Shown here: positions 5,546 through 63,715 of the stretch, piece after piece
How the letters are laid out: each line of letters opens with the position of its first letter
Numbering within the stretch: position 1 is the stretch's first letter
Source: an archaeon
Lineage (GTDB): Archaea; Nanobdellota; Nanobdellia; SCGC-AAA011-G17; GW2011-AR20
Length of the DNA stretch: 64,000 nucleotides
Direction of reading: 5' to 3'
NCBI GenBank assembly: GCA_043808705.1
Contig: JAZDEO010000013.1
Coordinates: forward strand, 8,081 to 72,080
Notes under the pieces: model-generated
The model's input: only the letters and a program-made list of their open reading frames with translations
Told to the model about the DNA's origin: nothing
Database searches by the model: none
Made by a program: the position numbers and the translations under genes

Positions 5546-7597
5546 CTATTGGCTGTTCTTCTCTAATTTTAATAAAGCATCCCACTCTTTATCAACATGT
5601 TCCTGTACTTTATCAAGAATCTTTTTATTTTCATCTTTTAGGAGATGTTTAAATCTTCCTTGAAGTTTTAAAAATTCAATTATAGGTAGTCTATTTTCAT
5701 TCTTATAATTTATAGTATATTTATTATTTTCAACCTCATATAAAGGCCAGAAATTAGTCTTAACAGCCAATTCAGCTATTTTAACAGCTAAATTTGTATC
5801 AAATCTCCATCCTAAAGTACAAGGTTGTAATACATTTATGAATGCAGGACCATTAGCATTAAAGGCCTTCTCAGCTTTATTATAGAGATCTATTAAATTA
5901 TTTAAAGAAGCTTGAGCAACATAAGGAATATTATGAGCAACAACAATTTTAGTTATATCTTTTCTAAATTTCTCTTTGCCTTGATGGAACTTTCCTACTG
6001 TTTCTGTTGTAGTATCAGCTCCAAAAGATGTTGCAGAACTTCTTTGAACTCCCGTATTATGAACTATAATCCCATTAGCAATAAAGTTATGTTCACCCTC
6101 AACTCTTAAATCTAATGTTGGTTCAACGCCTAACTGTTTAATATTTCTTACTTTTTCTATACTAAAATATTTATTTTCTATTAAGAAATTTTTGTATTTA
6201 TACTGATTTTTATATTTTTTAGTGTTCCATATTCCAAGTTTACTAAAGCACATATACCAATATTGTGTATCTTTTAATAATTTTCTATAAACCACAACTT
6301 TACCTTTTTTTATTTTTATATTATGTAATTTTCCAACTCTATAATTCATAGTTTGTAATAATAATCTTAATCTTTTAACTAGATCATAACTTGAAGAGGG
6401 ATATCTCCAACTTTCACCCATTTTATATCCATCAGATAACATTAACCCCTCTAAAAATTCTTCTTTTTCTTTCTTAGTTAATGTAAATATCCATGAAGGT
6501 ATTGTTTTATTTTTAGAACCTTTACCTAAACCCAGAGAATCAATGAACTTTACAACATTAATAGATCTTATATACACCTCATTCTTTGATTCTACCGGTT
6601 TAATTTTAAATACCTTCTTTATAAGATTGATTAGTACCTTTCTAGCTTTATCTTTTTCAGGTATAGCAAAAGCAACTTCTGCTTTTTCTGTTCTAGTCCA
6701 ACCATCACCTACCCACAAACCCAATAATTTCATTAAATCTTCATTTGATTTTTTAGGTATTTTTACTTTGTTAATTTTATTTACTTTATAATCACCTTTC
6801 TTAGAAATATTTATTGGTTCAAAAACGTATTTTTTACCTTCTTTCAAATCTTTTTGAACAACTAAATCATCCCCCATCTTAATATTCTCTAATCTTTTCC
6901 AAATAAACTCATTAGTATTACTACGTCCATTATGTTTTAAAACTAAAAAGGGATGATTTCCTGTAGCCTTAATATCGTGATGTAAGGTTGATAAACTATA
7001 AACTCTTTTTTTTCCATTATCAAAAACACCATCACATTTTTTTAAAACTAAATCATAATTTTTTTGATCAAAAGCATATACCATTTCACCTTTCTTTATT
7101 TCAGTTATTAATTTTAATCCTTTTTCAGTCAAAATTAGACTGTCCAAAGTTAAACAGTTCATATAAGCTTCATTATTATACAAAACATAAACAAATTTAT
7201 GTCCTCTTTCTAAAGCACCACTTAATGCCTGTAACCCAATATCATATGTGCCACCATCACCACCAAACGCAACAAAATTAATATCTTTTTTTATCTTATT
7301 TTTTTTCTTTAACACATTAAAAGCAGTTTCAACACCAGATATAGTTGAAGCTGCATTTTCAAATGCATTATGTATCCAAGGAACATTCCAGGAACTAAAA
7401 GGATATATGCTAGATGTAACCTCCAAGCACCCAGTAGCACAAGAAACAACAACAGGTTTTTTAGAAGTACTTAAAACAGTTCTAACTATTTGAGGAATAC
7501 CACAACCACTACATGTTCTATGACCAGAAACAAACTTTTTATTTACACTCTGATCATTTGCTAGTTCAATTATATTCATTTTAATTCTTAATATCAA
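5546..7597 (-). CDS. porB: pyruvate:ferredoxin oxidoreductase beta subunit (TPP-binding) interrupted by an intein
   Basis: Exteins: CSGCG…, [10 protein letters not shown], …NNEAYMN|TGVQRSS… (conserved Y-M-N-T-G motif is split). Spliced extein 316 aa, consistent with typical PorB size. Confidence 0.9.
6056..7156 (-). mobile_element. intein (367 aa) with LAGLIDADG homing-endonuclease domain inside porB
   Basis: Starts CLTLDS (block A), ends …GIIVHN followed by +1 Thr; internal [10 protein letters not shown] and [20 protein letters not shown] blocks; in-frame. Confidence 0.85.
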
Positions 7598-7600
7598 ATT

Positions 7601-9759: not shown

Positions 9760-11043
9760 ATGATAAATATAAACCTAATAAGAAAATATCCAGATTTAGT
9801 AAAAGAAAACATAAAAAAGAAATTTCAAGAGCATAGATTATTCTTAATTGACAGATTTAAAGTTTTGGATGAAGAATGGAGACACCTAAAAATAGAAAAT
9901 GATTCTTTAAGATCTAAAAGAAATAAGATTTCTCAAGAAATAAATGAAGCAAAAAAAACCAATGACCATAAACTTAAAGAACTAATAAAGGAAGCAAAAT
10001 CTATTCCAGAAAGAATTAAAGAGATTGATGAGAAATTAAAGAATTTGGAAGAAGAAATAGAACAAATAATGCATAAGATTCCTAATTTGATATCAAAGGA
10101 AACTCCATTAGGAAGAGATGAATCTCAGAATAAAGAAATTAAGAAACATGGTAAAATACCAAAATTTAAGTTTTCAATAAAAAATCATGTAGAATTACTA
10201 GAACATCTTAATTTAGTAGACTTTGAAGCATCAGCAAAGGTTTCTGGAAATGGTTTCTATTATTTAAAAGGAAAACTAGCTTTATTAAATCAGGCTTTAA
10301 TAAGATTTGTTATAGATTTTATGAACAAAAAGAAATATGAGTATATAGAAACACCTTTAATGTTAAATGAAAAATCTATATCTTCATCTATGGATAAAGA
10401 AACAATTGAAAATTCAGTCTATTCTATTAAAGACGAAGACTTAAACTTAATAGGGACAGCAGAACAGTCATTATTGGCTATGCACTCACAAAAGACAATA
10501 AAGGAATCAGAACTTCCAAAGAAATACTTTTCTTACTCAATGTGCTTTAGAAAAGAAGTAGGAGCCCATGGTATAAATGAAAAAGGCCTTTGGAGAACAC
10601 ACCAGTTTAATAAAATAGAACAATTTATTTTTTGTAAACCAGAAGACTCAGAAAAATTATACAAAGAATTATTAAAGAATTCAGAAGAGATATTAAATGC
10701 TTTAGAGCTTCCATATAGGGTTTTAGAAATATGTTCAGGTGATTTATCAGACTGGAAACATAGAAGCGCTGATTTAGAGGTTTATAGAGCAACAACAAAA
10801 TCTTATGGTGAAGTAATGTCTTTATCTAACTGTACTGATTACCAAGCAAGAAAACTTGATATAAAATGTATTGATAATAAAGGCAACAAAAGAACCTTGC
10901 ATACCTTAAACAATACAGCATTAGCAACATCTAGAATATTAGTTGCATTAACAGAAAACAATCAACAGAAAGATGGTTCAATAAAGATTCCAAAAGCATT
11001 ATGGAAATATACAGGATTTAAAAAAATAAGTTCTTTAAAATGA
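9760..11043 (+). CDS. serS: seryl-tRNA synthetase
   Basis: N-terminal coiled-coil arm, class II motifs (…FRKEVGAHG…, GTAEQSL…), 427 aa. Confidence 0.85.
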   Translation: MININLIRKYPDLVKENIKKKFQEHRLFLIDRFKVLDEEWRHLKIENDSLRSKRNKISQEINEAKKTNDHKLKELIKEAKSIPERIKEIDEKLKNLEEEIEQIMHKIPNLISKETPLGRDESQNKEIKKHGKIPKFKFSIKNHVELLEHLNLVDFEASAKVSGNGFYYLKGKLALLNQALIRFVIDFMNKKKYEYIETPLMLNEKSISSSMDKETIENSVYSIKDEDLNLIGTAEQSLLAMHSQKTIKESELPKKYFSYSMCFRKEVGAHGINEKGLWRTHQFNKIEQFIFCKPEDSEKLYKELLKNSEEILNALELPYRVLEICSGDLSDWKHRSADLEVYRATTKSYGEVMSLSNCTDYQARKLDIKCIDNKGNKRTLHTLNNTALATSRILVALTENNQQKDGSIKIPKALWKYTGFKKISSLK

Positions 11044-13400: not shown

Positions 13401-13401
13401 C

Positions 13402-22348: not shown

Positions 22349-24409
22349 ATGAAGAAAATAATAATCTTAACCGAAAAACCAACAGCATCTTTAAAGATAG
22401 CTCAGGCTTTATCATCTAAAATAACCAAGAAGAAATACAAGAAAGCCCCTTATTATGAGTTAGAATTTAATGATAAAACAATAACAATATTATGTGCAGT
22501 AGGTCATCTTTACAATTTAGCTGAAAAAGAAAAAAATCATTGGACTTATCCTATATTTGATTATGTATGGAAAGAATCATATTCTGTTCAAAAATCTGCA
22601 GCATTCTCAAAAGTTTATTTAGACGCAATAAAAAAACTAGATGACAAAGAAGCAGAAGTTTATATGGCCACAGATAAAGATCTAGAGGGAGAGATTTTAG
22701 GTTATAACATAATAAGATTTGCATTAAAAAGAAATGATGCAAAGAGAATGGAATTTTCAACTATGACCGCTAAAGATTTAAAGCATTCATTTGAAAATCC
22801 AAAAGAACATTTAGATTTTCCATTAATTAATTCAGGAGAGACAAGACACATTCTTGATTTTTTGTGGGGTCTTAATTTAAGTAGAGCTCTGACATCATCA
22901 ATAAGAAAATCAGGTTTCTTTAAAATATTAAGCTCTGGCCGAGTTCAAGGACCAGCTTTAAAGATACTAACAGAAAGAGAACTTGAGATAAGAAAATTTG
23001 TTTCAAGAAAATATTGGGAATTAGAAGCTATAAACACACTTACATTATATCACAAAAACGGTAAATTCTTTGATAAACAAGAAGCAGATGAAAAATATGA
23101 AAAAATAAAAGACGAGAAAATAGCATCTGTAATTAATATAGAAAAAAAAGAGTTTTATCAAGATCCACCAAATCCTTTTGATTTAACTTCACTACAACTT
23201 GAATCATATAAGTTATTTGGAATATCACCTAAAGAAACATTATCAATAGCTCAAGAACTTTATATTAATGCCTACATATCATATCCGAGAACCTCATCGA
23301 ATATACTACCAGAGTCATTAAACTATAAGGAGATTATTACAAATATTTCAAATCAGAAACAATATGAAAAATTATCTAAAGAATTACTTTCAAAAAAAAT
23401 ATTAAAGCCAAATAACGGTAACAAAACAGATCCAGCTCATCCAGCTTTATATCCTACAGGAGAAATTCCTTCAAAACTTAATGAAAAGGAAAAAAAGATT
23501 TATGATCTAATTGTTAAAAGAACCTTAGCTTCATTTGCAGATAAAGCAAAAAGAGAAACAGTTATCATAGAAACAGACATTAAAGAAGAACCCTTTATCG
23601 CAAAGGGTTCAAGAACTACAGAGAAAGGATGGCACTCTTTCTATGAACCTTATATTAAATTAGAAGAGGTAGAAATGCCTCCCTTAAAAATAAATGATAA
23701 AATAAAATTAAAGAAAATAAGCAAATTAGAAAAAGAAACAACCCCTCCTAAAAGATATACAGAAGCTTCAATAATAAAAGAACTAGAATCAAGAAATTTA
23801 GGAACAAAAGCAACAAGAGCTTCTATAATAGAATCTCTCTATCAAAGAAACTATGTAAAAGAAAAATCAATTGAAGTTACAGATTTGGGATTAAAAACAG
23901 TTGAGGTTTTAGAAAAATATGCTTCAGAAATTTTAGATGAGAACTTAACAAGACATTTTGAAGAGGAAATGGATCAAATAAGAGAGGAAAAAAAGAAAGA
24001 AGAAGAGGTTATAGAAGAAGCCAAAGTAACCTTAAAAGAGATTCTAGATCATTTTAAGAAAAATGAAAAGAAAATAGGAGAAGAACTTTCAGTAGCAAAT
24101 AAAGAAACCCAAAATCAAGCATCTATAATAGGAAAATGCCCTAACTGTGAAGGAAATTTAAAGATATTATATTCAAAAAAGTTCAAATCATATTTTTTAG
24201 CTTGTGACAAATATCCAGAATGTAAAACAACATTTTCTCTACCATCAGGATTACCTAAGCCAACAGATAATTTCTGTGAAGAATGTAAATACCCCTTAGT
24301 TAAAATAATAAGAAGCGGCAAAAAACCATTTGATTATTGTTATAATAAATCATGTCCAAAAAGGTTAAGATGGATTAAAGAACAACAATCCCAGAATCAT
24401 CAATCTTAA
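22349..24409 (+). CDS. topA: type IA DNA topoisomerase (Topo I/III-like) with C-terminal zinc ribbons
   Basis: Toprim N-terminus (IIILTEKP…DKDLEGE), catalytic core, and C-terminal CPNCEG…CDKYPECK…CEECKYP zinc fingers. Confidence 0.85.
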   Translation: MKKIIILTEKPTASLKIAQALSSKITKKKYKKAPYYELEFNDKTITILCAVGHLYNLAEKEKNHWTYPIFDYVWKESYSVQKSAAFSKVYLDAIKKLDDKEAEVYMATDKDLEGEILGYNIIRFALKRNDAKRMEFSTMTAKDLKHSFENPKEHLDFPLINSGETRHILDFLWGLNLSRALTSSIRKSGFFKILSSGRVQGPALKILTERELEIRKFVSRKYWELEAINTLTLYHKNGKFFDKQEADEKYEKIKDEKIASVINIEKKEFYQDPPNPFDLTSLQLESYKLFGISPKETLSIAQELYINAYISYPRTSSNILPESLNYKEIITNISNQKQYEKLSKELLSKKILKPNNGNKTDPAHPALYPTGEIPSKLNEKEKKIYDLIVKRTLASFADKAKRETVIIETDIKEEPFIAKGSRTTEKGWHSFYEPYIKLEEVEMPPLKINDKIKLKKISKLEKETTPPKRYTEASIIKELESRNLGTKATRASIIESLYQRNYVKEKSIEVTDLGLKTVEVLEKYASEILDENLTRHFEEEMDQIREEKKKEEEVIEEAKVTLKEILDHFKKNEKKIGEELSVANKETQNQASIIGKCPNCEGNLKILYSKKFKSYFLACDKYPECKTTFSLPSGLPKPTDNFCEECKYPLVKIIRSGKKPFDYCYNKSCPKRLRWIKEQQSQNHQS

Positions 24410-25057: not shown

Positions 25058-27589
25058 ATGGACAAAGTGAAAGAAATCAAGTTAAAGGTAATGGAAGCCC
25101 TGCAGGAAGAGGCCTATAAAGGAATAGTTAGAATAGACTCTGAAACAATGAAGGAGCTTCATGTCCATCCAGGAGAGGTTGTTGAAATAGAGGGTGGTAG
25201 AGTAACAGTAGGCACAGTTGATAGAGCCTATCCAACAGATGTTGGTCAATCAGTAATAAGAATGGACGGTATAATAAGAAGAAACGCAAAAACAAGTATA
25301 GGGGAATATGTAAAGGTAAAGAAAGCCTTAAGTGAAGAAGCAAAGGCAGTTTCAATTGCACCAGCTCAAAAAGGGATTATGATTAAAGGCAATCCTGATT
25401 TTATTAAAAAAGTCTTATTAGGGAGAGCTATAGTTAAAGGAGATTTAGTTGTTCCAACAGGATTCAGAACAAGAAGAAGGGGAATGCCAGATTCATCATT
25501 TTCAAATCCCATGTTAGATGATTTCTTTTCAGAATTTGAAGAATCTCTTTCAATAGGTTTTGGTCTAGGAAATATAAGATTCATAATTGTTTCAACTACC
25601 CCAAAGCAACCAGTTATAATCACAGAAACAACAAAATTAGATTTAATAGAAAAAGCAGTTGACATAACAGAAGAAAAAGTACCTGAAGTTACATATGAAG
25701 ACCTAGGGGGATTATCAAATGAAATTAAAAATATAAGAGAAATGGTAGAGCTTCCATTAAAACATCCAGAGATATTCGAGAAATTAGGGATAGAACCTCC
25801 AAAAGGAGTTTTGCTTCATGGTCCTCCAGGAACAGGTAAAACTTTATTGGCTAAGGCAGTAGCAAATGAATCAGAAGCTAATTTTATTCTTGTAAATGGT
25901 CCTGAAATAGTTAACAAATATTATGGTGAATCAGAAAAGAGACTTAGAGAAATATTTGATCAAGCTGAAAAATCAGCACCATCAATAATATTCTTTGATG
26001 AAATAGACGCAATTGCTTCTAAGAGGGAGGAAACTTATGGAGAACTTGAAAGAAGAGTTGTTTCTCAATTACTAACACAATTAGACGGTCTAAAATCTAG
26101 AGGCAAAGTAGTTGTTATAGCAGCTACAAATAGGCCAAATTCAATAGATCCAGCATTAAGGCGTCCAGGTAGATTTGATAGAGAAATTCAAATAGGTGTT
26201 CCTAATAAAGAGGGCAGACTAAACATATTAAAGATTCATACAAGAAATATGCCTCTTTTCAAATTTGAAAATTCTTTAAAAGATCTAAAAGACAAAGAAC
26301 CAAAGATAATTACAGAAGAATTAGAAGAATTATTAATTTATATAGGAAAGAGTAATGATAGAAAATACTATTCATTAAAAGATATTGAATCTTTTATACA
26401 AAAATATCTAAAAGACAATCCAAAAAAGAACGAGATAGCAAAGAATTTTAATATAAATGAAATAAAAAAGATATTAGACAAGATTACTTTAAATCAAAAT
26501 ATAGTAAATCTTTCTGACTTAGCTGAAATAACTCACGGTTTTGTTGGTGCAGATATAGCAGCATTATGCAAGGAAGCAGCAATGTCTGTTTTAAGAAGAA
26601 TACTTCCAGAAATAAAGTGGGGAGAAAAAGAAACAATACCTAAAGAGATATTAGAAAGTTTAATGATTACCTCTAATGACTTTCAACAAGCCCTAAGATT
26701 AGTAAGACCTTCTGCTATGAGAGAAGTCTTAGTTGAAAATCCAAATGTAAAATGGAATGATATAGGTGGCTTGGAAAATATACAACAAGAACTTAAAGAA
26801 GCTGTAGAATGGCCATTAAAACATCCAGATGCCTTTAAAAGAATGGGTATAAGGCCTCCTAGAGGATTATTACTTCATGGTCCTCCTGGAACAGGTAAAA
26901 CATTATTGGCTAGGGCAGTAGCCACAGAATCTCAAGCAAACTTTATCCAGATTAAAGGTCCAGAATTATTAAACAAATTTGTTGGGGAATCTGAAAAAGG
27001 CGTTAGAAAGATATTTGAAAAAGCAAGACAAGTTTCTCCATCAATAATATTCTTTGATGAAATAGATGCTATAGCACCTAGAAGAGGATCTTCTCATGAT
27101 TCACACGTTACTGAAAATGTAGTTAACACAATACTAGCTGAAATGGATGGTTTAGAAGAACTAAATAATGTAATTGTTCTTGGAGCAACAAACAGGCCAG
27201 ATAGAATTGATTCAGCTTTACTAAGGCCCGGAAGATTTGATAGAATTTTACTAATAGGGCCCCCATCAAAAGAAGGAAGGTTAGACATATTAAAAATTCA
27301 TACAAAGAATATGCCTCTAGCTAAAGAAATAAATTTAAAGACCTTAGCTGAAAAAACCGAAGGTTATGTAGGAGCAGATCTAGAATCTGTTTGTAGAGAA
27401 GCTGGTTTGTTAGCATTAAGAGAAAACATAAAAGCAAAAGAGATAAAGAAAAAATTCTTTGATGAAGCCTTAAAGAAAGTAAAACCCTCACTATCTCCAG
27501 AAATAATGGAGTTCTATAATAAAGAAGAATCTACCCTAAAAAGCGCAAAATCAGTATTAGCAAAAGACGCTCCAAGTTATTTAGGTTAA
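25058..27589 (+). CDS. cdc48: CDC48/VCP-like AAA+ ATPase (double AAA) with ~85-aa low-complexity insertion in D1
   Basis: N-domain, two [11 protein letters not shown] Walker A, two DEID Walker B, SRH motifs. Lys/Asn-rich insertion between NMPL and [13 protein letters not shown]. Confidence 0.9.
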
Positions 27590-30176: not shown

Positions 30177-31052
30177 TTAAAAACGTTTCGTTAATACCTT
30201 TATATAATCATCAATAAACAAGGTATGCTCAGCTTGACTTACCTTTTCTCTGCTCCTTTCAATTAATTGTTTATACTGATAAACTATACCTTCTTTTTCC
30301 ATTATTCTTAAGGCAAAGTTTACTTTAAATTCTGGAAATTTTTTTAATAACCATATCTTAGAAAAAGGCAAAGTTTTATATTCATTAATAATATACCTTA
30401 ATACTTCATTAGTTATATCATTTCTAACACTCTTTACATTAATTACCTTATAAATTCCAGAATCTTTACCATCTTCAACATAACCAGAACCAGTAGTAGC
30501 AAAAGGTTCTATTGCAATTATCTGCCCTTTCTTTAATTTAGTATTATCATTATTGTCATAATTAGGAATAGTTAATCCAGAATGTTCTTCAAATTCTTTA
30601 ATCTCATGCCCAGATAAATTTTTAATAACCTTAAATCCCTTACTTATAATAGTCTCTTCAATAACCTCTCCAATCTTATTTATTTTAACACCAACCTCAA
30701 TAATTTTAATTGCTTCATTTAAGGCAGCTTCGCTAGCCTTTATCAAATCTTTATTATTCCCTAAATCTACGCTTAAGGCAGAATCCCCAATTCTTCCATT
30801 TACATGTACTCCTACATCTAATTTAACTAAATCATCTTTATTAAATCTTAAATCCTTATTTAAGGGTATAAAATGAGCAGCAATCTCATTAATAGAAATT
30901 TGAACAGGAAAAGCGGGCTTTGCATTTAATTCATAAATCTTATTTTCAATTTTTTCTATAACATCAGATATATTTGTATCTATCTTTATCAAAGATATTC
31001 CATAATCTAAAACCTCAGAGGTTAATTTTCCAGCTTTTTCCCAATCATCCAT
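30177..31052 (-). CDS. map: methionine aminopeptidase, type 2 (archaeal MAP2, M24 family)
   Basis: 291 aa, pita-bread fold motifs, archaeal MAP2 length and insert. Confidence 0.75.
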   Translation of the reverse strand: MDDWEKAGKLTSEVLDYGISLIKIDTNISDVIEKIENKIYELNAKPAFPVQISINEIAAHFIPLNKDLRFNKDDLVKLDVGVHVNGRIGDSALSVDLGNNKDLIKASEAALNEAIKIIEVGVKINKIGEVIEETIISKGFKVIKNLSGHEIKEFEEHSGLTIPNYDNNDNTKLKKGQIIAIEPFATTGSGYVEDGKDSGIYKVINVKSVRNDITNEVLRYIINEYKTLPFSKIWLLKKFPEFKVNFALRIMEKEGIVYQYKQLIERSREKVSQAEHTLFIDDYIKVLTKRF

Positions 31053-34168: not shown

Positions 34169-34334
34169 CTCTTTTCACAATTCTAGAAAGCTTACTTATT
34201 ATAAATCTTGCTAATTTACAAACCTTGTGCTGGGCCATGACATATGTCATGATCTTATACACTAATTTACAAACCTATAAATTAATGAAACCACAAACTT
34301 TAAATACTATTAAATCTTATTTAATCTTACAAAA

Positions 34335-34469
34335 ATGAAAGAACAATTTATAAGAGTAGTTAGAAAAAGTGGAGGAAGTCTATCTGTTAATCTCCCTAAA
34401 GAAATTGTTAAATTACTTAACTTAAAAGATGGGAATATTGTCAAAATTATAATAGAAAAAAGAAAATAA
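34335..34469 (+). CDS. AbrB/SpoVT (swapped-hairpin) family small DNA-binding protein, 44 aa
   Basis: Hand-translated, below ORF-track cutoff. MKEQFIRVVRKSGGSLSVNLPKEIVKLLNLKDGNIVKIIIEKRK: VRKxGxSLxVxLPKEIVxxLxLKxGD is the AbrB/MazE-type signature. Stop is 1 nt before the fen ATG. Confidence 0.6.
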   Translation: MKEQFIRVVRKSGGSLSVNLPKEIVKLLNLKDGNIVKIIIEKRK

Positions 34470-34470
34470 A

Positions 34471-38541: not shown

Positions 38542-38826
38542 TTACTCCTTAGCCATTCTCTCAATTCTCTCTAACCTTTGAATAACATTATCTAATTTGG
38601 CATTAATTGTTTCTAATTTGCTTATAACTAAATCATCTCTTAAGCTATTATCAAGATTTCTCTCAAAACTTCCAGACCCAGAATTTTGATTCTGAAAAGG
38701 GTCTCTAAAATTTTGTTGTGGAAACTGCTGATTAAAATTAGGCTGACCTTGTTGACCATAATCTTCTACAGGTATTTCAACCTTCTTTTTTTTAAATAAG
38801 CTGAATGGAAACATTTTATAATGCAT
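38542..38826 (-). CDS. Gln/Asn/Pro-rich low-complexity protein with C-terminal coiled coil; hypothetical
   Basis: YGQQGQPNFNQQFPQQNFRDPFQNQNSGSGS…LETINAKLDNVIQRLERIERMAKE; overlaps upstream gene by 11 nt. Confidence 0.4.
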   Translation of the reverse strand: MHYKMFPFSLFKKKKVEIPVEDYGQQGQPNFNQQFPQQNFRDPFQNQNSGSGSFERNLDNSLRDDLVISKLETINAKLDNVIQRLERIERMAKE

Positions 38827-41429: not shown

Positions 41430-43853
41430 CTAATTAGACTTAATCTCAAATATACTCTTTTTTAATCTTATAGCAGAAGGAGTATCTCCCCCATGCCATG
41501 TTAATTTAGGTCTTGTTTTCATAGGATATATCCTCTCAGAGTTATCATCTAAAATAATTGCAGAACCTTTTATTTTAGGTAAATTATTCAAGTAACTTAA
41601 AATATCTCCTGTCAAATAACTTTGGGTTATTGAATTTAGAGCCTCAACATCAATCTTAGCAGTAACTCTAAAACTTACAACAATATCACTCTGAGTTAAA
41701 GCATCTTTAGCCAATTCACCAGGCTGTTGTGTTGCCATTACTAGACTTATTCCAGGTTGTCTCCCCTCTCTTAAAATCTGGATTAAAGCATCACTTGCAG
41801 GACTCTTTCCCTCTCGGGGGAGGAACTCGTGACATTCGTCTATTAAAATCCAAACAAGAGGCATATCACTCTTTTTAGTTTCAAGTTCAAAATAATGCTG
41901 CCCTTCTTCTATCAAATTCATTTCTTCTAATTTTCTAGCATCCATTCTTTCTCTTAACAGTTTACTTCCTAATAACCCTATAACCAGGCATTTAATATTC
42001 CAATCAGTATAACAACTAATATCTAATATTGAAACTTCTCCAGCCTTAATAATGTCTTTAATTTTAGTGCTATCCTTATCAAATAAACCCCATAATTTTG
42101 AAGAATTAAATCTGTTTTCAACAGCATTTTTTACATTAGCATCAGATTTCTTATCTTTTAAAAGTTCTTTAATTATGTCATCAACATCATAATCCTTTCC
42201 AGTATCTTTTAAATTTCCAATTACCCTTTCAATTAAAACACCCTTGTCATCCATTAAACCAATACTAAAAACATTACACCAATCTAAAGAAGTTAATTCA
42301 GAGGGTTTTATTGAAAAATTAAAGTCTGTAGGAATATTTTTCTCTTTATATTCCTGAAACTTTCCCTTAGGAGTATAAACTTTAACATTCAAGCCTTGAG
42401 GTTTTAATCCATATCTCTTTAATTCATCCTCCTGTTTTAAATTAGGATATTTCATACTCCAAAATATTCCCATAGTATCTAAAATTAAAACAGCCAGATT
42501 CTTTTTAACATCATCATCCAATCTCGTTACTTCTTCAGCTATTACAGATAAAAAATAACTTTTTCCAGAATTATGCGAAATAATACCATTAGCTACAAAA
42601 GAATGATTTTTGTTTACAGATAGATCATAAACTTCTTTTATATCTTTTATTTTTTGGATATCTTTTATTTTTCTACAAACTAAATTATTAGACAAATAAA
42701 ATGTTTTTTTTCTTCTAAACCCATCTATTTTTTTATTATTCAATCTTTCCTGCTTAAAATTATTGAAGAAGCCTATTTTTTTAAAATTATTATTTGAAGC
42801 ATTATCTGTGATAAACAGTCTATAATTTAAGTACATTTTATTATTACATCTAGCATTTTTTTCTCTTATAACAGATTCTATATTAAAATGACTTAACAAA
42901 AGTTGTAAATCCTCTAAAAATTCTTTCGATTTTGAGGAATAATCAATATGACCCCCCTTACTTATATAACCATCACATGAAAATAAAGCTGAAATAAAAT
43001 TTGCTTTAAATGTATTTGAACTTTCCCAAACAATCTTCGGGATTCTAATTATACCCGATTTATTTCCTAAAGGAACACCTAGTTTATTTAATCTATCAAT
43101 CACAGGAGCATGAAGTGATTGAATAACCTCACAATTACAATCATTTCTTTTATATCTTTTTGAATGTAAACCAAATTCTTCTTCGAGATCTTTTTTTGCT
43201 AAATCTAAGACTTCAAGACAATCATTATATATTCTTAATCTACTCTTTGTTCCATTATACCAAGCACCTCTTCCATCTTTCCATCTACCTCTCCTTTTAT
43301 TAATTGTTCCATCAGATAAAACAAAACCCAATAGTCTAGCTATTCTTAAACTTTCTTTATCATTTTTTACTTCTGGTAACTCAGTAGGCATAATTATTTT
43401 ATCATTAATTTTTAATTGCTGAGCCATCCTCCAAAATATATATTTGCCATAATTCATGAGTAAAGGATGTTCATTTGTTAAAATTATTGATCTTCCATCA
43501 TAGAATTCTAATTTTAATAAGTGTTCTTTTATATCATATTTTAAAAGTTCTGCATTTTCCCATTCAAATTTTTTATTTTTTTTATCAAATGAAAATACTT
43601 TATCTTCTTTCTCATTAAAGTCCTTTATATTTTTATATCCCTTATCTGTAAAAACTTTAGTCTCTCCACTAAGACACCCCCTTTTTCCTGAAATCAAAAT
43701 TATATGAGAACTGTTAACATCTAAGTAAATATCACTTCCAAGAGAAGTTGTCTGCCCCATCTTAACATAACTCTTTCCAATAAAAATAAGGCCTTTGTTT
43801 CCATATTTCTTCATATCAACTTCATTTCTTCCAATAATTATGTTATGAACCAT
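41430..43853 (-). CDS. HerA/FtsK-superfamily DUF87-like ATPase interrupted by an intein in the P-loop
   Basis: Exteins …HIILISGKRG | SGKSYFLSVIAEE give Walker A GKRGSGKS. Walker B VWILIDECHEF, MATQQPGEL. Spliced extein 438 aa. Confidence 0.75.
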   Translation of the reverse strand: MVHNIIIGRNEVDMKKYGNKGLIFIGKSYVKMGQTTSLGSDIYLDVNSSHIILISGKRGCLSGETKVFTDKGYKNIKDFNEKEDKVFSFDKKNKKFEWENAELLKYDIKEHLLKLEFYDGRSIILTNEHPLLMNYGKYIFWRMAQQLKINDKIIMPTELPEVKNDKESLRIARLLGFVLSDGTINKRRGRWKDGRGAWYNGTKSRLRIYNDCLEVLDLAKKDLEEEFGLHSKRYKRNDCNCEVIQSLHAPVIDRLNKLGVPLGNKSGIIRIPKIVWESSNTFKANFISALFSCDGYISKGGHIDYSSKSKEFLEDLQLLLSHFNIESVIREKNARCNNKMYLNYRLFITDNASNNNFKKIGFFNNFKQERLNNKKIDGFRRKKTFYLSNNLVCRKIKDIQKIKDIKEVYDLSVNKNHSFVANGIISHNSGKSYFLSVIAEEVTRLDDDVKKNLAVLILDTMGIFWSMKYPNLKQEDELKRYGLKPQGLNVKVYTPKGKFQEYKEKNIPTDFNFSIKPSELTSLDWCNVFSIGLMDDKGVLIERVIGNLKDTGKDYDVDDIIKELLKDKKSDANVKNAVENRFNSSKLWGLFDKDSTKIKDIIKAGEVSILDISCYTDWNIKCLVIGLLGSKLLRERMDARKLEEMNLIEEGQHYFELETKKSDMPLVWILIDECHEFLPREGKSPASDALIQILREGRQPGISLVMATQQPGELAKDALTQSDIVVSFRVTAKIDVEALNSITQSYLTGDILSYLNNLPKIKGSAIILDDNSERIYPMKTRPKLTWHGGDTPSAIRLKKSIFEIKSN
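42570..43676 (-). mobile_element. intein (369 aa) with LAGLIDADG endonuclease in HerA-like ATPase P-loop
   Basis: CLSGETKVFT (block A) … ANGIISHN + Ser(+1); LAGLIDADG blocks LLGFVLSDGTIN, FISALFSCDGYIS. Confidence 0.85.
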
Positions 43854-45403: not shown

Positions 45404-45430
45404 TTTAATTATTTAAAATTTTTTAATAAT

Positions 45431-49955: not shown

Positions 49956-50897
49956 TTATTTTGAAAATCCAGCAAGTAAGGACTCAAGCTGTATGAATTC
50001 ATCTGAACCCTCAACAAGCCTGAATTCAATTTCTCCGCATTTTTCAACCATCTCCAATTTTTTCTCATCCTTGATATCTAAACTTAAAATCTCTTTTTGA
50101 ATCTGTTTAATAATATCAATTCCAGACAATCCGTGTTTTAACATAACCTCTAATAATAAATCTCTAGCTCTTACAAAATTCTTATTAATACAAAGCTCTA
50201 GAACTTGTTTAATCTCTTTAGGCTTAGCAGCACTTACAATTTCATAAATCAAATCCTGGGTTATTTTTTTAGACATAACAGAACAACTTTGTAATACATT
50301 CTCAAGTCTTCTTACATCACCCTCGCTTATTTCATATAAGGCATCAATAGCATCCTTATCAATCTTTAAACCTTCAATTTTAGCCACATTTTCAATAATC
50401 TTTTCAATATCTTTTTTCTCCAAAGGCTTAAATCTAAAAATTGTGCATCTTGATTGTATAGGATCAATAATCTTGCTGCTATAATTGCAGCTTAAAGCAA
50501 ACCTAGTTGAAGAAGCATAATTCTCCATTGTTCTTCTTAAAGCCTGTTGAGCCTCTCTTGTTAAAGAATCACATTCATCTAGATGTATTATTTTAAAGGG
50601 AACATCTCCAATAGATTTAGTTCTAGCAAAATCCTTTATCTCATTTCTAATTGTATCAATGCCCCTTTCATCCGACGCATTAAGATCGAGAAAATTCTGT
50701 CTCCATTCATCCTTAAATAATGTTTTTACAATAACTAAAACAATCGAAGTTTTTCCAGTTCCAGGAGGCCCAGCAAATAAAAGATGAGGGATATTCTTGT
50801 TTTTGACCATGGCCTTAATTCTTTCAACTATCTTATCTTGGCCCTTTATTTCATCAAAACTTGAAGGTCGAAACTTCTCGATCCATATTTCATTCAT
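49956..50897 (-). CDS. rfcS: replication factor C small subunit, intein-free
   Basis: [29 protein letters not shown] motif (IQSRCTIFRF); 313 aa. Confidence 0.9.
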   Translation of the reverse strand: MNEIWIEKFRPSSFDEIKGQDKIVERIKAMVKNKNIPHLLFAGPPGTGKTSIVLVIVKTLFKDEWRQNFLDLNASDERGIDTIRNEIKDFARTKSIGDVPFKIIHLDECDSLTREAQQALRRTMENYASSTRFALSCNYSSKIIDPIQSRCTIFRFKPLEKKDIEKIIENVAKIEGLKIDKDAIDALYEISEGDVRRLENVLQSCSVMSKKITQDLIYEIVSAAKPKEIKQVLELCINKNFVRARDLLLEVMLKHGLSGIDIIKQIQKEILSLDIKDEKKLEMVEKCGEIEFRLVEGSDEFIQLESLLAGFSK

Positions 50898-55975: not shown

Positions 55976-57997
55976 ATGGCTGTAGATGCATCAGAACAAA
56001 TAGAGAAATTTAAGGAATTCTTACATAGGGATTATGAAAAGGTAATTTATGAGAATGTAAGAAAAGGCAATTATGTAGTAAACATTGATTTCTCCCATAT
56101 AATGGAATTTGATCATGAATTAGCAGATCAATTACTAGAAGAACCAGAAGAGACATTAAAAGCTGCAGAACTTGCCATAGACTCATTTGACATTGAAAAA
56201 TCAATGAGGGTACGTGTTTATAACTTGCCTTCAAGCCAATTTATAATGATTAGAGACATTAGAAGTTTACATCTCGATAAGTTAATGTACATAGAAGGAA
56301 TTGTAAGACAATCATCAGATGTAAGGCCCCAAGTAACATCAGCAAGATTCGAATGCCCTTCTTGCGGTAATAATATTTCTATTTTACAATTAGACACAAA
56401 ATTCAAAGAACCATCAAGATGTTCCTGTGGAAGAAAAGGTAAATTTAGGCTTATAAGTAAAGATTTAGTAGATGCTCAACGTTTAGTTATAGAAGAAACC
56501 CCAGAGGTATTAGAAGGGGGAGAACAGCCAAAAAGATTATCTGTATTTTTAAAAGAAGACTTAGTAGAACCAAAAATGGAGAAGAAAACAACCCCAGGAT
56601 CTAAAGTAAGAATTACAGGAGTAGTAAAAGAAGTTCCAATTACATTGAAAACAGGTGCTCAGTCAATAAGATATGACTTAATGATGGAATCTAATTATAT
56701 TGAACCTATAGAAGAGATATTTTCTGATATAGAAATAAATCAAGAGGACGAACTTCAAATAAAAGAGCTTGCAAAAGATCCAAATATATATGAAAAATTA
56801 ACAAACGCCATAGCTCCTTCTATTTATGGTCATGAACGTGTAAAAGAGGCAATAATTCTTCAATTAATGGGTGGTGTAAGAAAGAAAAAGGAAGACGGTA
56901 CAATAACAAGGGGAGACATGCATATACTCTTGGTTGGGGATCCTGGTTCTGGGAAATCACAAATCTTGACATTTGTTTCAAAATCAGCACCAAAAGCAAG
57001 ATTTGTTTCAGGTAAAGGGGTTTCTGGAGCAGGTTTAACAGCATCGGTTGTAAAAGACGAGTTTTTAAGAGGATGGGCTCTAGAGGCAGGAGCATTAGTT
57101 CTAGCAAATGGTGGTTATTGTTGTATTGATGAGTTAGATAAAATGACACCAGAAGATAGAAGCGCCATGCACGAGGCCATGGAGCAACAACAAGTTAGTA
57201 TTTCGAAGGCTAATATTCAAGCAACTTTGCGCGCACAAACTACAATACTAGCAGCAGCAAATCCAAAATTGGGAAGATTCGATCCCTACACACCTATAGC
57301 AGCTCAAATAGATTTACCAGCAGCATTAATTAACAGATTTGATTTAATCTTTCCAATAAGAGATATTCCAAATAAGGAATTAGATGAAAAAATAGCTTCA
57401 CATGTCCTAAAACTTCAACAAACCCCAAAAGGTGCAGAAGCAGAAATTTCTGTAAAATTATTAAGAAAATATATAGCATATGCCAGACAAAAAGTAAGTC
57501 CTGTTTTAACAGATCAAGCAATAGATGAAATAAAAGAATTTTATGTAGCTTTAAGAAATTCGGGGCAAACAGGCGATGATCAAATAAAACCTATTCCAAT
57601 CTCAGCTCGTCAACTAGAAGCTCTAGTAAGATTAGCAGAGGGTGCAGCAAGATTAAGGTTATCTAAAAAAGTATCAAGACAAGATGCAAGAAAATCTATA
57701 ACTTTATTAAAGCACTGTTTAATGCAAGTTGGCATAGATCCAGAAACAGGTAAAATAGATATTGATAGAATTTCAACAGGAATATCAACATCTCAACGTT
57801 CTAGAATAATAGTAATCAGAGAAATTATCAAAAAATTAGAAGCAGATATTGGAAAATCAATACCCACACAAAATATTGTTGTGGAAGCAGCAGCTAAGGG
57901 CATAGATGAATCACAAGTAGAAGAAGCTCTAGAAAGATTAACAAGAGAGGGTTTTATATTTCAACCAAAAAGAGATTCAGTCTCGATAATTGATTAA
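55976..57997 (+). CDS. mcm: MCM replicative helicase, intein-free
   Basis: Zn finger CPSCGN…CSCGRKG, Walker A GDPGSGKSQ, Walker B CCIDELDKM, arginine finger region; 673 aa. Confidence 0.9.
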   Translation: MAVDASEQIEKFKEFLHRDYEKVIYENVRKGNYVVNIDFSHIMEFDHELADQLLEEPEETLKAAELAIDSFDIEKSMRVRVYNLPSSQFIMIRDIRSLHLDKLMYIEGIVRQSSDVRPQVTSARFECPSCGNNISILQLDTKFKEPSRCSCGRKGKFRLISKDLVDAQRLVIEETPEVLEGGEQPKRLSVFLKEDLVEPKMEKKTTPGSKVRITGVVKEVPITLKTGAQSIRYDLMMESNYIEPIEEIFSDIEINQEDELQIKELAKDPNIYEKLTNAIAPSIYGHERVKEAIILQLMGGVRKKKEDGTITRGDMHILLVGDPGSGKSQILTFVSKSAPKARFVSGKGVSGAGLTASVVKDEFLRGWALEAGALVLANGGYCCIDELDKMTPEDRSAMHEAMEQQQVSISKANIQATLRAQTTILAAANPKLGRFDPYTPIAAQIDLPAALINRFDLIFPIRDIPNKELDEKIASHVLKLQQTPKGAEAEISVKLLRKYIAYARQKVSPVLTDQAIDEIKEFYVALRNSGQTGDDQIKPIPISARQLEALVRLAEGAARLRLSKKVSRQDARKSITLLKHCLMQVGIDPETGKIDIDRISTGISTSQRSRIIVIREIIKKLEADIGKSIPTQNIVVEAAAKGIDESQVEEALERLTREGFIFQPKRDSVSIID

Positions 57998-60595: not shown

Positions 60596-63500
60596 ATGAC
60601 AGAACAAAAAAATGCAAATGAACTAGCAAAAGAATTTAGATCAGTAAGTGTTTCAGACTTTTTTGCCAGAAACAGACATCTTCTTGGCTATGATAATCCA
60701 ATAAAGGCATTGTTAACAGTAATTAAAGAGGGTGTTGATAATTCTGTTGATGCATGTGAGGAAGCTGGAATTCTTCCAGATGTTTATATAGAAATAAAAC
60801 AATTAAATGAAACAAGATTTATTATTATTCTAGAGGATAATGGCCCGGGAATTGTTAAGAAACATATTCCAAATGTTTTTGCATCTTTGCTTTATGGAAC
60901 AAAATTCCATAGGTTAAGACAAAGTAGAGGAGTCCAAGGTATTGGTATTTCTTCTGCTGTTTTATATGCTCAATTAACAACAGCCAAGCCAACAAAGATA
61001 TGGTCTAAAATAGATGGAAATAATAAAGCATTTTATTATGAGCTTCATATTAACACTCAAAAAAATGAGCCAGAAATAGTTAAAGAAGAAGATATTGATT
61101 GGCCTAATAAAAAAACAGGCATTAAAATAGAACTAGAAATAGAAGCAAAATACCAGAAAGGTCAGCAATCAGTAGATCAATATTTAAAACAGACAGCAAT
61201 AGCAAACCCCCATCTTCAAATTACTTATATAAGTCCACTTGGTGAAAAATTAGAATTTCCTAGAGCAACAAAAGAGCTTCCAAAAGAGCCTAAAAGAATA
61301 AGTCCTCATCCTTATGGTATTGAACTGGGCATTTTAATGAAAATGCTTAGTGATACAAAACATGGAAAATTATCAAGTTTTTTGCAAAATGAATTCTGTA
61401 GGGTTTCTCCAAATGTTTCAAAAGAGATTTGTGAAAAAGCAAGCCTTCCTGAAAATTCCAGACCCTCAAGAATAGCAAGGCAGGAAGCTGAAAAATTATT
61501 TAAAGCAATTCAGGAAACAAAAATAATGGCTCCTCCTACAGATTGTTTAAGCCCTATAGGTCAAGAGCTTTTAGAAAAAGGTCTTAAAAAAGAGATTAAT
61601 GCTGATTTTTATGCATCAGTAACAAGAAGCCCCTCTGTTTATAGAGGTAATCCATTCCAGATTGAATGTTGTACAGGAGATACAAAATTAATATCAGAAG
61701 AAGGCGGTATCTTAAATATAAAAGATTTTGTAGAAAATAAGATTAACAAAAAAGTTTTTGCTATGGATTCTAATCTAAAAATTAGACCTGTAAAAGTAAT
61801 TGCTTGGCACAAATTTAAAAATAAACATAAAATACTTAAAATAAAAACTAAATCTGGTAGAAGTTTAAAAATTACTGACAATAATCAACTACCAATTATT
61901 GAAAATGGAGAAATTATATGGAAAGAATCTAAAGATGTAATGGCTGGTGATTTTATCGCTTCTCCTAGAAAGTATAATATAAAAGGCTATGTGCCTAATA
62001 TTTTGGATTTATTTAAAGAAAATGAAAAAGATATTCAAATTTGTGACAAAGAAATTATTATTTTAGTTTTAGACCTATTAAAAAATAAGTTTAGTTCTTT
62101 AAAAAAATCCTCAAAGAAACTGAATATTGATTATGATTATTTTAAAGCAATGTATAGAAAAGGGAATTCTACAAAACCTTCTTTAGATTTATTTAAAAGA
62201 ATGTGTACTTTAGCAGAATTAAAGGATAATTTTATTTATAACATAAAAAAGATTAGGTTTGTTAATAATAGATTTAAGAACCCTAAATCAATAAACATCC
62301 CAAAAATAAATGAAGACCTGTTTTATGTTTTAGGATTATTAAATTCAGATGGTTTCATTTCTAAGAAGTTAGTATCTTTTGTTAATAAGGATGAATATTT
62401 ACATAGTCTATATTCTTTAAAGATTTATCAACTATTTGGTTTAAAAACTAAAAGATATAATATTAATTCTAGTATTTACAATAAGACTTTATCTGAAGTT
62501 CTTAATAGACTTGAAAAAATAATTTGTAAACTTCCAGATTATTTAGTAATAGCTTGGTTGAAAGGATTTGTTGATGGAGATGGTTGGGTTAATTTAAAAG
62601 ATGGAGTAATAAAAAGAATAGGTATTACTACAGCAAAAGAAGAGAAAGCAGAATTTACACAATTTTTACTATTAAGATTAGGTATAATCTCCAAAATTGA
62701 AAGAAAAGGGGTTTCTAATTGTCAAGGTAATATAAATGGAAGAATTATTAAAACATTAAAACCACAGTATAATATCATTATCAGAGATTTTGAAAATATT
62801 AACAAATTTTCTTTATTAATATCTTTTAGGCAATTAAATAGATCACATTTATTATCTAAAGGATTGATTAAACAACTTAAACACTTAAAAGACATTGTAC
62901 CTTTAGGCAAACTCTTAAAAAGATTTAGAGAAGAAAACAATTTATATCAATATGAATTAGGTTTTTCTGATGATAATATAAGGAGTATTGAGAAAGGCAA
63001 TTATCATATTGGACGAGGAAATCTGCAGAAGATTATTGAACTTCAAAATTATTCTAGTGACTCCTTTGAAAAATTGAAAAATTTAGCTTATTCAGATGTA
63101 TTATGGGATAAGATTACTGATATTGAGTTAGTAGAAAATGAAAATTATGTTTATGATTTAACTACAGAAGTTGGTAATTTTGTTGCAGACAATATTATAA
63201 TGCATAACTGTGCTATAGCCTATGGAGGAGACATAGAAAAAGAGGATGTAATAAGATTATTGAGATTTGCAAATAGAGTTCCTTTACTTTATCAGAAAGG
63301 GGCATGTGCTGTTACAAGAGCAGTAGGTGAAACAAATTGGAAACAATATGGATTACAACAATCAGGAAAAAATCTACCTGTAGGTCCAATTGTCTTAGTT
63401 GTTCATATAGCATCAGTATGGGTCCCATTCACATCAGAGGCTAAAGAAGCAATAGCTCATTATCCTGAAATAATCAAGGAAATAAAACTTGCTTTACAGG

Positions 63501-63715
63501 AATGTGGAAGACAATTAGGAATTTACATTAGAAAACATATCAAAGCTAAAGAACAAAAAGAAAAAGCAAATTTGTTTGAAAAATACATTCCTGAATTAGC
63601 ATCATCACTTTCAAATTTAACAGGCGACAAAAAAGATAAGATAGAGGAAGATCTATTAAAGATATTAAAGAAAGGAATTCCAGAAATAGAAGAAAATGGA
63701 CAAATCGAAAAATAA
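60596..63715 (+). CDS. top6B: DNA topoisomerase VI subunit B interrupted by a 514-aa intein
   Basis: GHKL/Bergerat ATPase (VDNSVDACEEAG…ILEDNGPGI…LLYGTKFH). Exteins …GNPFQIE | CAIAYGGDIE. Spliced extein 525 aa. Confidence 0.9.
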   Translation: MTEQKNANELAKEFRSVSVSDFFARNRHLLGYDNPIKALLTVIKEGVDNSVDACEEAGILPDVYIEIKQLNETRFIIILEDNGPGIVKKHIPNVFASLLYGTKFHRLRQSRGVQGIGISSAVLYAQLTTAKPTKIWSKIDGNNKAFYYELHINTQKNEPEIVKEEDIDWPNKKTGIKIELEIEAKYQKGQQSVDQYLKQTAIANPHLQITYISPLGEKLEFPRATKELPKEPKRISPHPYGIELGILMKMLSDTKHGKLSSFLQNEFCRVSPNVSKEICEKASLPENSRPSRIARQEAEKLFKAIQETKIMAPPTDCLSPIGQELLEKGLKKEINADFYASVTRSPSVYRGNPFQIECCTGDTKLISEEGGILNIKDFVENKINKKVFAMDSNLKIRPVKVIAWHKFKNKHKILKIKTKSGRSLKITDNNQLPIIENGEIIWKESKDVMAGDFIASPRKYNIKGYVPNILDLFKENEKDIQICDKEIIILVLDLLKNKFSSLKKSSKKLNIDYDYFKAMYRKGNSTKPSLDLFKRMCTLAELKDNFIYNIKKIRFVNNRFKNPKSINIPKINEDLFYVLGLLNSDGFISKKLVSFVNKDEYLHSLYSLKIYQLFGLKTKRYNINSSIYNKTLSEVLNRLEKIICKLPDYLVIAWLKGFVDGDGWVNLKDGVIKRIGITTAKEEKAEFTQFLLLRLGIISKIERKGVSNCQGNINGRIIKTLKPQYNIIIRDFENINKFSLLISFRQLNRSHLLSKGLIKQLKHLKDIVPLGKLLKRFREENNLYQYELGFSDDNIRSIEKGNYHIGRGNLQKIIELQNYSSDSFEKLKNLAYSDVLWDKITDIELVENENYVYDLTTEVGNFVADNIIMHNCAIAYGGDIEKEDVIRLLRFANRVPLLYQKGACAVTRAVGETNWKQYGLQQSGKNLPVGPIVLVVHIASVWVPFTSEAKEAIAHYPEIIKEIKLALQECGRQLGIYIRKHIKAKEQKEKANLFEKYIPELASSLSNLTGDKKDKIEEDLLKILKKGIPEIEENGQIEK
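61667..63208 (+). mobile_element. intein with LAGLIDADG endonuclease in top6B
   Basis: CCTGDTKLISEEG (block A) … DNIIMHN + Cys(+1); LAGLIDADG blocks LGLLNSDGFIS, WLKGFVDGDGWVN. Confidence 0.85.

Follow-up and report, generated by a model that had tools for sequence, protein, structure and literature searches.

Four separate LAGLIDADG inteins, probably gained fairly recently, in conserved motifs of genes from a Woesearchaeota-type archaeon

Introduction

How does a single 64-kb stretch of archaeal DNA come to hold four inteins, and are these elements still mobile? The question is raised by a 64,000-nucleotide stretch of contig JAZDEO010000013.1, called the window throughout, in which the genes for PorB (the beta subunit of a pyruvate/2-oxoacid:ferredoxin oxidoreductase), the flap endonuclease FEN-1, a HerA-like P-loop ATPase, and Top6B (topoisomerase VI subunit B) are each interrupted by an in-frame insert. 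An initial annotation had read the inserts as LAGLIDADG inteins in unusual hosts and had proposed recent or active homing. The window has a GC content of 28%, and its nearest genome representatives by Top6B are Candidatus Woesearchaeota metagenome-assembled genomes (MAGs) in GTDB, at 63 to 67% identity; its sequence marks the source as a low-GC DPANN archaeon of the Woesearchaeota type.

We consider it probable, from comparison of sequences, that the inserts are four independent canonical inteins belonging to Woesearchaeota- or DPANN-wide families. They appear to have been gained fairly recently, by homing or recombination from diverged donors, and we infer that their endonucleases are functional now or were so until recently.

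Results

Four inteins interrupt conserved motifs of their hosts. Pfam searches placed Intein_splicing (PF14890) and LAGLIDADG_3 (PF14528) within all four host open reading frames (ORFs), where the host domains TPP_enzyme_C, XPG_I, DUF87, and Topo-VIb_trans end at the insert or are split by it. The boundaries of all four could be read straight from the sequence (Table 1). A six-frame scan with a hidden Markov model (HMM) built from the four inteins found no fifth intein in the window, the next match having an E value of 0.056. The window therefore contains exactly four in-frame inteins with two LAGLIDADG motifs each, and the initial annotation had placed all four correctly, as domain matches, junctions, and HMM scan agree.

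In each insert, a double-motif LAGLIDADG homing endonuclease is nested within a Hint splicing domain. The nucleophile at position 1 is Cys in the PorB, HerA-like, and Top6B inteins and Ser in the FEN-1 intein. Block G and the +1 residue read VHN/T (PorB), CHN/T (FEN-1), SHN/S (HerA-like), and MHN/C (Top6B), the slash marking the junction. Block B has the form Thr-x-x-His in three inteins (TGNH in PorB, TKSH in FEN-1, and TNEH in HerA-like) and reads TDNN in Top6B; since natural inteins lacking this His are known, as described in PMC6333167, TDNN does not exclude membership in class 1. By their sequence features all four are bona fide inteins, and splicing is predicted for each.

An acidic residue is kept in both LAGLIDADG motifs of every intein, the first and second motifs containing GDG and SDG (PorB), AEG and GDG (FEN-1), SDG and CDG (HerA-like), and SDG and GDG (Top6B). 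No frameshift or stop codon was found in any of the four. The double LAGLIDADG blocks had been called apparently intact, and this holds up: the catalytic Asp or Glu is present in both motifs and conserved across homologues, and none of the four has blocks deprived of these residues, as a degenerate intein might. The inteins have a lower GC fraction (0.24 to 0.26) than the exteins (0.30 to 0.32). Pairwise identity among the four is only 24 to 35%, which rules out one intein spreading within the genome and points to four separate intein lineages. Besides the match of the FEN-1 intein described below, the solved structures recovered were the CDC21, VMA, PI-PfuI, DnaB, and PI-PkoII inteins.

Inteins usually sit in conserved functional motifs, and the insertion points of all four conform to this. 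The PorB intein lies in the thiamine pyrophosphate (TPP)/Mg-binding motif, with NNEAYMN before it and TG after it. The FEN-1 intein splits the GTDYN motif (ILVG/TDYN), adjoining the active-site Asp motif. The HerA-like intein falls within the Walker A loop (GKRG/SGKS), and the Top6B intein is inserted at the start of the transducer domain (PFQIE/CAIAYGG).

With the inserts removed, the exteins match the fen_arch, Top6B, and PorB NCBIfam models contiguously and align without gaps to intein-free homologues. Spliced FEN-1 and Top6B score over the cut-offs of their equivalog models (397 and 735 bits, respectively); the best NCBIfam match of spliced PorB is PorB, at 359 bits, under the 405-bit cut-off. 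The PorB gene probably starts at the ATG at 7579 rather than at the TTG at 7597, to judge from the corresponding gene of a close relative, which begins MNIIEL. The ATPase scores 46.5 bits against a cut-off of 970 for the HerA equivalog, its matches being confined to the DUF87/HerA central domain and a Zot-like P-loop region. We therefore rejected its identification as true HerA, the DNA double-strand-break repair helicase, and refer to it as a HerA-like DUF87 ATPase.

Empty sites in a close relative. Contigs of a close relative were recovered from metagenomes (L001 from ENA, L002 from JGI, L003, and L083; all under JGI 3300032053/ENA ERZ27247916). They are syntenic with the window at 82 to 95% nucleotide identity, about 88% overall, and the flanks are syntenic on both sides of every intein examined. 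The presence/absence comparison covers PorB, FEN-1, and the HerA-like gene. L001 and L002, which were assembled independently, are syntenic with the window from about 34 to 48.8 kb; both carry an intein-free FEN-1 gene (335 to 336 aa) and an empty HerA-like allele (P0018, 437 aa, the representative of a 90% cluster) whose sequence is 94% identical to the window extein. A metagenome scan with spliced PorB found an intein-free PorB, 93% identical, on L003, from the JGI sample of L002. BLAST alignments to the close relative break exactly at the intein borders of all three genes; for PorB, the breaks against L003 fall at 7158 and 6058. At least three of the four inteins are thus present in the window lineage and absent from its close relative.

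The Top6B intein is polymorphic among more distant relatives, and the GTDB Top6B loci of more distant Woesearchaeota were intein-free in 20 of the 20 recovered. The other member of the Top6B cluster lies on a 1.2-kb contig. Related genomes therefore do hold intein-free alleles, with clean empty sites for PorB, FEN-1, and HerA-like and intein-free Top6B in the distant Woesearchaeota. It follows that these inteins are not anciently fixed and that recent gain or loss is real. To this extent the proposal of recent homing is supported, though indirectly, by empty sites with exact borders in the close relative.

The HerA-like junction favors gain. The window reads GGG/TCT GGA where the empty allele reads GGT GGA GGA, four differences within 5 nucleotides, and the flanks are 93 to 94% identical right up to the junction. 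The empty allele encodes Gly at +1, which cannot support splicing, in place of the Ser of the window. A clean deletion would leave the +1 Ser, so arrival of the intein together with the donor's adjacent codons explains this junction better. The PorB junction is uninformative on gain versus loss: the empty site encodes the same amino acids with three synonymous differences within 15 nucleotides on either side, and upstream divergence is slightly raised.

The FEN-1 intein is surrounded by a diverged tract that shares 57 to 73% nucleotide identity with the relative against a background of 85 to 95%. The tract takes in the upstream spacer, the whole N-extein, and about 160 nucleotides of the C-extein, after which identity returns to about 85%. 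Accordingly, the FEN-1 extein is 62% identical to that of the close relative overall and 93% identical across its last ~35 residues. The intein lies inside a ~2.6-kb tract that, judged by this divergence, has been replaced. The window lineage has probably gained the HerA-like and FEN-1 inteins, at least, in recent times.

Intein families of related archaea: PorB. A full-length PorB query returned 667 matches, the best 120 of which are all PorB proteins of ~675 aa with Intein_splicing; at least 120 protein clusters share the intein at this one site. Several of the intein-bearing matches carry the JGI annotation "...beta subunit/intein/homing endonuclease." In an alignment of 27 sequences the site is the same throughout, and the splice-junction residues, including H513, N514, and T515, are invariant, as are the motif glycines and aromatics; both Asp residues are at least 90% conserved. 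The LAGLIDADG_3 match of the window's PorB intein is weak (26.8 bits), and about half of the homologues have no precomputed match to this model. Conservation of the homing site was seen in all 75 intein-free PorB alleles, which encode YMN/TG.QRS with Thr at +1 (slash, insertion point). The best 80 metagenome loci recovered with spliced PorB were intein-free without exception (80/80). Some PorB-plus-intein proteins (P0066, P0086, P0118, and P0123) come from MAGs labelled Omnitrophica, Parcubacteria, or Aerophobetes; these could be misbinned DPANN contigs or could represent a real bacterial presence.

FEN-1. The FEN-1 intein is rarer, with 8 clusters (52 to 68% identity), all with Ser1 and all at the same site; 7 of these are homologues of the window's intein. 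The full-length query gave 16 matches, intein-free alleles not being among them; those were found through 90% cluster membership. Over the whole 534 aa the FEN-1 inteins are 67 to 75% identical to one another, against 47 to 64% for their exteins, and this greater likeness of inteins than of exteins points to horizontal spread. The closest solved relative is PI-PkoII, the Pol-2 intein of Thermococcus kodakarensis (PDB 2cw7/2cw8; E = 3.5e-23). The alignment spans the N-terminal splicing region, both LAGLIDADG motifs, and the C-terminal HN, and the two are of similar size (537 aa for PI-PkoII). PI-PkoII differs in its host (PolB rather than FEN-1) and in having Cys1 where the FEN-1 intein has Ser1, and overall identity is low.

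HerA-like ATPase. At least three intein sites occur in the HerA-like family: GKRG/S (that of the window), GKRGSGK/S three residues away, and the Walker B site VVDE/C. The search recovered full inteins, mini-inteins of ~145 aa, and multi-intein proteins of up to 1,308 aa. P0266, P0273, P0280, and other homologues show the neighboring-site pattern, and some proteins carry two inteins. Mini-inteins at the window's own site (141 to 145 aa) have splicing domains 55 to 64% identical to that of the window's intein. One of them, a 145-aa endonuclease-less mini-intein at the same Walker A site, is encoded by a distant syntenic relative (L106, 20844-22586) and has termini close to those of the window's intein (VYDLSVNKNHSFIANGIISHN); by sequence, it is the endonuclease-loss stage of the same intein family. 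A comparable arrangement occurs in the MCM protein of Haloarchaea, where neighboring inteins interfere with one another (PMC10643990). There, too, several intein sites lie a few residues apart in a P-loop ATPase. The host protein and the lineage differ, and the likeness drawn here is one of site spacing.

Top6B. All 17 members at the window's Top6B site (the window plus 16 homologues sharing it) have a TxNN block B, and the second Asn of TDNN occupies the alignment position of the His in the CDC21 intein 6rpq. The CDC21-1 inteins of Thermococcales (PDB 6rpq/6rpp) are the best solved match to the splicing domain of the Top6B intein. According to PMC6333167, the Tko CDC21-1 orthologues form a small natural intein group without the block B His, and as described there they are a precedent for natural splicing without it. 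They differ from the Top6B intein in host and site, and the aligned solved chain has His where the Top6B family has Asn. Other DPANN Top6B proteins carry inteins at VDN/S, KQS/L, and GIGI/C, with double-intein proteins reaching 1,550 to 1,626 aa. Top6B is already a published host: Table 2 of Novikova et al. 2016 (PMC4760082) ranks it sixth among archaeal intein hosts, with 15 inteins, and Villain et al. 2022 (PMC9348778) stripped inteins by hand from Top6A/B sequence sets. The Top6B inteins of Euryarchaeota and other Archaea tabulated in PMC4760082 share the host protein and the Hint-plus-LAGLIDADG architecture with the window's intein; the likeness drawn here is one of host and architecture. 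Where block B should carry His, the family to which the window's intein belongs by its site has Asn.

The hosts are mostly ordinary for this archaeal group. PolB, MCM, the RFC small subunit, Cdc48, and topoisomerase IA, the classical hosts, had been reported as intein-free, and domain searches and the HMM scan agree for all five. RFC-L, GlmS, IleRS, and a T2SSE/VirB11-like ATPase likewise gave matches to their own domains and no intein in the domain search. The length of Cdc48, described initially as normal, is not so: the protein is ~80 aa longer than its solved homologues, owing to a Lys/Asn/Glu-rich insertion of ~80 aa (residues ~405 to 485; window ~26270-26512) that, in comparison with Thermoplasma acidophilum VAT, separates the D1 core from its lid. 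We ruled out an intein here, as the segment has no Hint match and is a plain insertion relative to VAT.

The view that the hosts are unusual and oddly distributed did not survive comparison. Top6B is a published host, the PorB intein occurs in at least 120 clusters, and the HerA-like family has three sites; only the FEN-1 intein, with its 8 clusters, is rarer. A distant syntenic relative (L106/L107, FEN-1 extein 51% identical) has a full FEN-1 intein and an intein-free PolB along with its HerA-like mini-intein. This repeated pattern, together with the widespread homologues, indicates a distribution typical of the lineage's gene pool. PorB, FEN-1, the HerA-like ATPase, and Top6B are, for the most part, ordinary intein targets in this archaeal group, and look odd only against a classical catalogue dominated by Euryarchaeota. 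Our literature search covered inteins in DPANN, in ferredoxin oxidoreductases, and in FEN-1 and turned up no publication on these alleles; it did not extend to the supplementary tables of Novikova et al., where they might be listed, so novelty is unproven.

Intein DNA amounts to 5,352 bp, or 8.4% of the window. By an HMM scan alone, inteins were present in 3 of 107 related loci totaling 780 kb; two of the three owed their place in the set to a FEN-1 intein, and the remaining one is the Top6B target gene. As the HMMs represent no intein families but these, the comparison is a rough one. Intein density is likely high in the window locally, the genome-wide figure being unproven; bearing on this density, the window is rich in replication genes. 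No relatives of the HerA-like or FEN-1 precursors turned up in scans of viral contigs, which leaves no evidence for a viral vector.

Table 1. Inteins, host genes, and intein-free genes of the window (slashes mark splice junctions)
Feature	Coordinates	Strand	Details
PorB precursor ORF	5546..7597	-	Pfam TPP_enzyme_C ends at intein
PorB intein, 367 aa	6056-7156	-	YMN/CLTLDS...IIVHN/TGVQ; Cys1, block B TGNH, terminal HN, +1 Thr
PorB intein LAGLIDADG motif 1, 10 aa	6698..6727	-	G297, G299, W300 invariant, D298 at least 90% conserved (27 homologues)
PorB intein LAGLIDADG motif 2, 11 aa	6425..6457	-	D389 at least 90% conserved; flanking G, L, S, G, Y invariant (27 homologues)
Topoisomerase IA, intein-free	22349..24409	+	Domain search and HMM scan
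Cdc48/VAT, intein-free	25058..27589	+	Domain search and HMM scan
PolB, intein-free	31052..33508	-	Domain search and HMM scan
Diverged tract around FEN-1 intein, ~2.6 kb	34330..36930 (borders approximate)	+	Sliding identity against L001
FEN-1 precursor ORF	34471..37083	+	Pfam XPG_N, XPG_I
FEN-1 intein, 534 aa	35170-36771	+	ILVG/SVDHNE...VCCHN/TDYN; Ser1, block B TKSH, terminal HN, +1 Thr
FEN-1 intein LAGLIDADG motif 1, IIGYFLAEGH	36055..36084	+	Aligns with first motif of PI-PkoII
FEN-1 intein LAGLIDADG motif 2, FLKGLFLGDGS	36355..36387	+	Aligns with FLEGYFIGDGD of PI-PkoII
HerA-like (DUF87/FtsK-HerA-type) P-loop ATPase precursor ORF	41430..43853	-	Pfam DUF87, Zot
HerA-like intein, 369 aa	42570-43676	-	GKRG/CLSGET...IISHN/SGKSY; Cys1, block B TNEH, terminal HN, +1 Ser
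HerA-like intein LAGLIDADG motif 1, LLGFVLSDGT	43305..43334	-	
HerA-like intein LAGLIDADG motif 2, FISALFSCDGY	42966..42998	-	Aligns with VMA intein endonuclease 7qsu
RFC small subunit, intein-free	49956..50897	-	Domain search and HMM scan
MCM, intein-free	55976..57997	+	Domain search and HMM scan; MCM of the relative likewise 673 aa
Top6B precursor ORF	60596..63715	+	Pfam HATPase_c and split Topo-VIb_trans
Top6B intein, 514 aa	61667-63208	+	PFQIE/CCTGDT...IIMHN/CAIAYGG; Cys1-Cys2, block B T-D-N-N, terminal HN, +1 Cys
Top6B intein block B, KITDNNQLP	61868..61894	+	Without canonical His
Top6B intein LAGLIDADG motif 1, VLGLLNSDGF	62327..62356	+	SDG in 17/17 aligned
Top6B intein LAGLIDADG motif 2, WLKGFVDGDGW	62555..62587	+	DGDG in 16/17; P0169 decayed

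Other features of the window and its relative. In the SerRS gene (9760-11043), the central ~900 nucleotides (window 9931-10933) are 56 to 63% identical to the close relative between flanks of 85 to 95%; on this pattern a housekeeping gene has undergone mosaic allele replacement without the involvement of an intein. ORF 38816-40033 (405 aa) has no Pfam match, and window 38784-40003 shows ~50% nucleotide identity to the relative in a background of ~88%, which by sequence makes it either hypervariable or a replaced gene. In the relative, an additional gene encoding 615 aa (L001, 4271-6118; at window ~45404-45431) lies between those for an M48 peptidase and a peptidyl-prolyl isomerase and is absent from the window; its faint helix-turn-helix, NERD, Mrr_cat, and Hjc matches suggest that it may be an indel of a defense or mobile gene. 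The sole tRNA call by ARAGORN in the 64 kb, an 88-nucleotide "tRNA-Ala (agc)" at 1685-1772, is matched by Rfam only at 1698-1764, weakly (34 bits, model positions 9 to 63), and this tRNA gene may be interrupted by an intron or atypical in another way.

Discussion

If established intein biology holds here, each precursor would be translated whole and the intein would remove itself by the standard four-step pathway, restoring the host enzyme: an acyl shift at Cys1 or Ser1, transesterification to the +1 Cys, Ser, or Thr, cyclization of the terminal Asn, and an acyl shift to a peptide bond. The freed endonuclease would cut intein-free alleles at the conserved target, and repair copying the intein-bearing allele would insert the intein (homing), dragging along some flanking sequence. 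Homing endonuclease genes, among them that of the yeast VMA1 intein PI-SceI, pass through a cycle of invasion, fixation, decay, and loss. All the stages of a homing cycle occur in our data, as empty sites, full inteins, and endonuclease-less mini-inteins. As in the PI-SceI cycle, empty, invaded, and degenerate alleles coexist among relatives, with flanks that differ by the insert; unlike that cycle, the present one is known solely from metagenome assemblies of uncultivated archaea.

The strongest competing explanation, though a doubtful one, concerns only the endonucleases, which could already be inactive despite their acidic residues. This would leave the inteins as immobile remnants heading toward mini-inteins or loss, and the polymorphism would reflect past mobility. 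The weak LAGLIDADG_3 match of the PorB intein would fit this, as would the lack of a precomputed match in about half of its homologues, the mini-inteins and decayed endonucleases present in the same families and the AT-richness of the inteins, which is expected of weakly constrained DNA. However, the residues around both catalytic Asp/Glu positions are invariant or at least 90% conserved in 27 PorB and 17 Top6B inteins whose overall identity is ~50 to 65%, and the reading frames are free of frameshifts and stops in all four. The mutual identity of the FEN-1 inteins, maintained over their full length, further argues for purifying selection on the endonuclease part.

It is less probable still, and in our judgment unlikely, that the four are old, vertically inherited residents, perhaps benefiting the host through conditional splicing or the endonuclease, and that three were removed from the close relative by precise deletion or by conversion to intein-free alleles, the window lineage having seen no recent homing. 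This explanation draws on the inteins of the distant syntenic relative, which occupy the same FEN-1 and HerA-like sites, and on the PorB intein, which at its single site in at least 120 clusters is conserved to about the same degree as its host. It draws, too, on the Top6B inteins, whose divergence follows that of the exteins, and on the near-equality of intein and extein identity at the HerA-like GKRG/S site. Gains are nevertheless more parsimonious than three separate losses, each precise and in frame, in a single lineage at ~88% nucleotide identity. The empty HerA-like allele has GGA (Gly) instead of the TCT (Ser) that a clean deletion leaves, the FEN-1 inteins are clearly more similar to one another than their exteins are, and most related PorB and Top6B genes are without an intein. 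An assembly or binning artefact, with foreign reads joined in or a chimeric contig, is scarcely credible: although the window is a metagenome-assembled contig and assemblers struggle at junctions such as the one where the relative's Top6B contig breaks off, each of the four inserts keeps the reading frame, shows exact splice-junction residues, and has a low GC like that of the host, alleles with homologous inteins are present on many independent contigs drawn from several sources, and synteny with the relative holds on both sides of the inteins examined.

Several observations weigh against fairly recent gain of four splicing-competent inteins with working endonucleases. Intact motifs by themselves do not prove cleavage or splicing, and the splicing competence of the Top6B intein would follow from family-wide conservation alone, its block B His being absent. 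Gain was weighed against loss with a single close relative, where rigorous polarization would take a third, and the FEN-1 and HerA-like inteins of L106/L107 are also compatible with old residence followed by loss in that relative. The only Top6B contig of the close relative (L083) ends at its position 7562, equivalent to window 61647 and 19 nucleotides before the Top6B site; the assembly may have broken here because alleles with and without the intein are mixed in the sample. Intein and extein divergence, compared as pairwise identities rather than in trees, are largely coupled in PorB (0.64 for inteins versus 0.61 for exteins; r = 0.57) and in Top6B (0.48 versus 0.57; r = 0.74), which suggests substantial vertical inheritance of both families, and among HerA-like inteins at the GKRG/S site intein identity about equals extein identity. 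Finally, diverged mosaic patches without an intein occur elsewhere in this lineage (SerRS, 9931-10933; ORF 38816-40033), so the FEN-1 tract could be an ordinary allele replacement and not an endonuclease-driven co-conversion. Our reading is that these are long-lived intein families kept by repeated homing within Woesearchaeota.

A more far-reaching possibility, which we advance tentatively and from sequence comparisons, is that Woesearchaeota and DPANN archaea keep their own, largely undescribed and still actively homing set of intein hosts, including the widespread TPP-site PorB, Ser1 FEN-1, and His-less Top6B inteins, and that the window lineage has gained three or four of these since the split at ~88% nucleotide identity. 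Were this so, the Top6B family may splice without the block B His by a compensating mechanism.

The inteins also affect how such genomes are read. In NCBI records the FEN-1 and HerA-like precursors both appear as "LAGLIDADG family homing endonuclease," and at PorB only a truncated 538-aa "hypothetical protein" (P0021) is called. Names as misleading as these mean that DPANN gene inventories can wrongly report FEN-1 or the pyruvate:ferredoxin oxidoreductase subunit PorB as missing.

Biologically these are standard selfish elements, and nothing fundamental changes with their description. A very widespread intein in a metabolic enzyme, PorB, is of modest interest. With its clean presence/absence of three inteins, the window and its close relative form a natural system for the study of intein gain and offer ready pairs of inteins and empty sites. 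In the Top6B family Asn replaces the most conserved residue of inteins, the block B His, which would make this family the second natural system in which to study how the N-terminal junction is activated without histidine.

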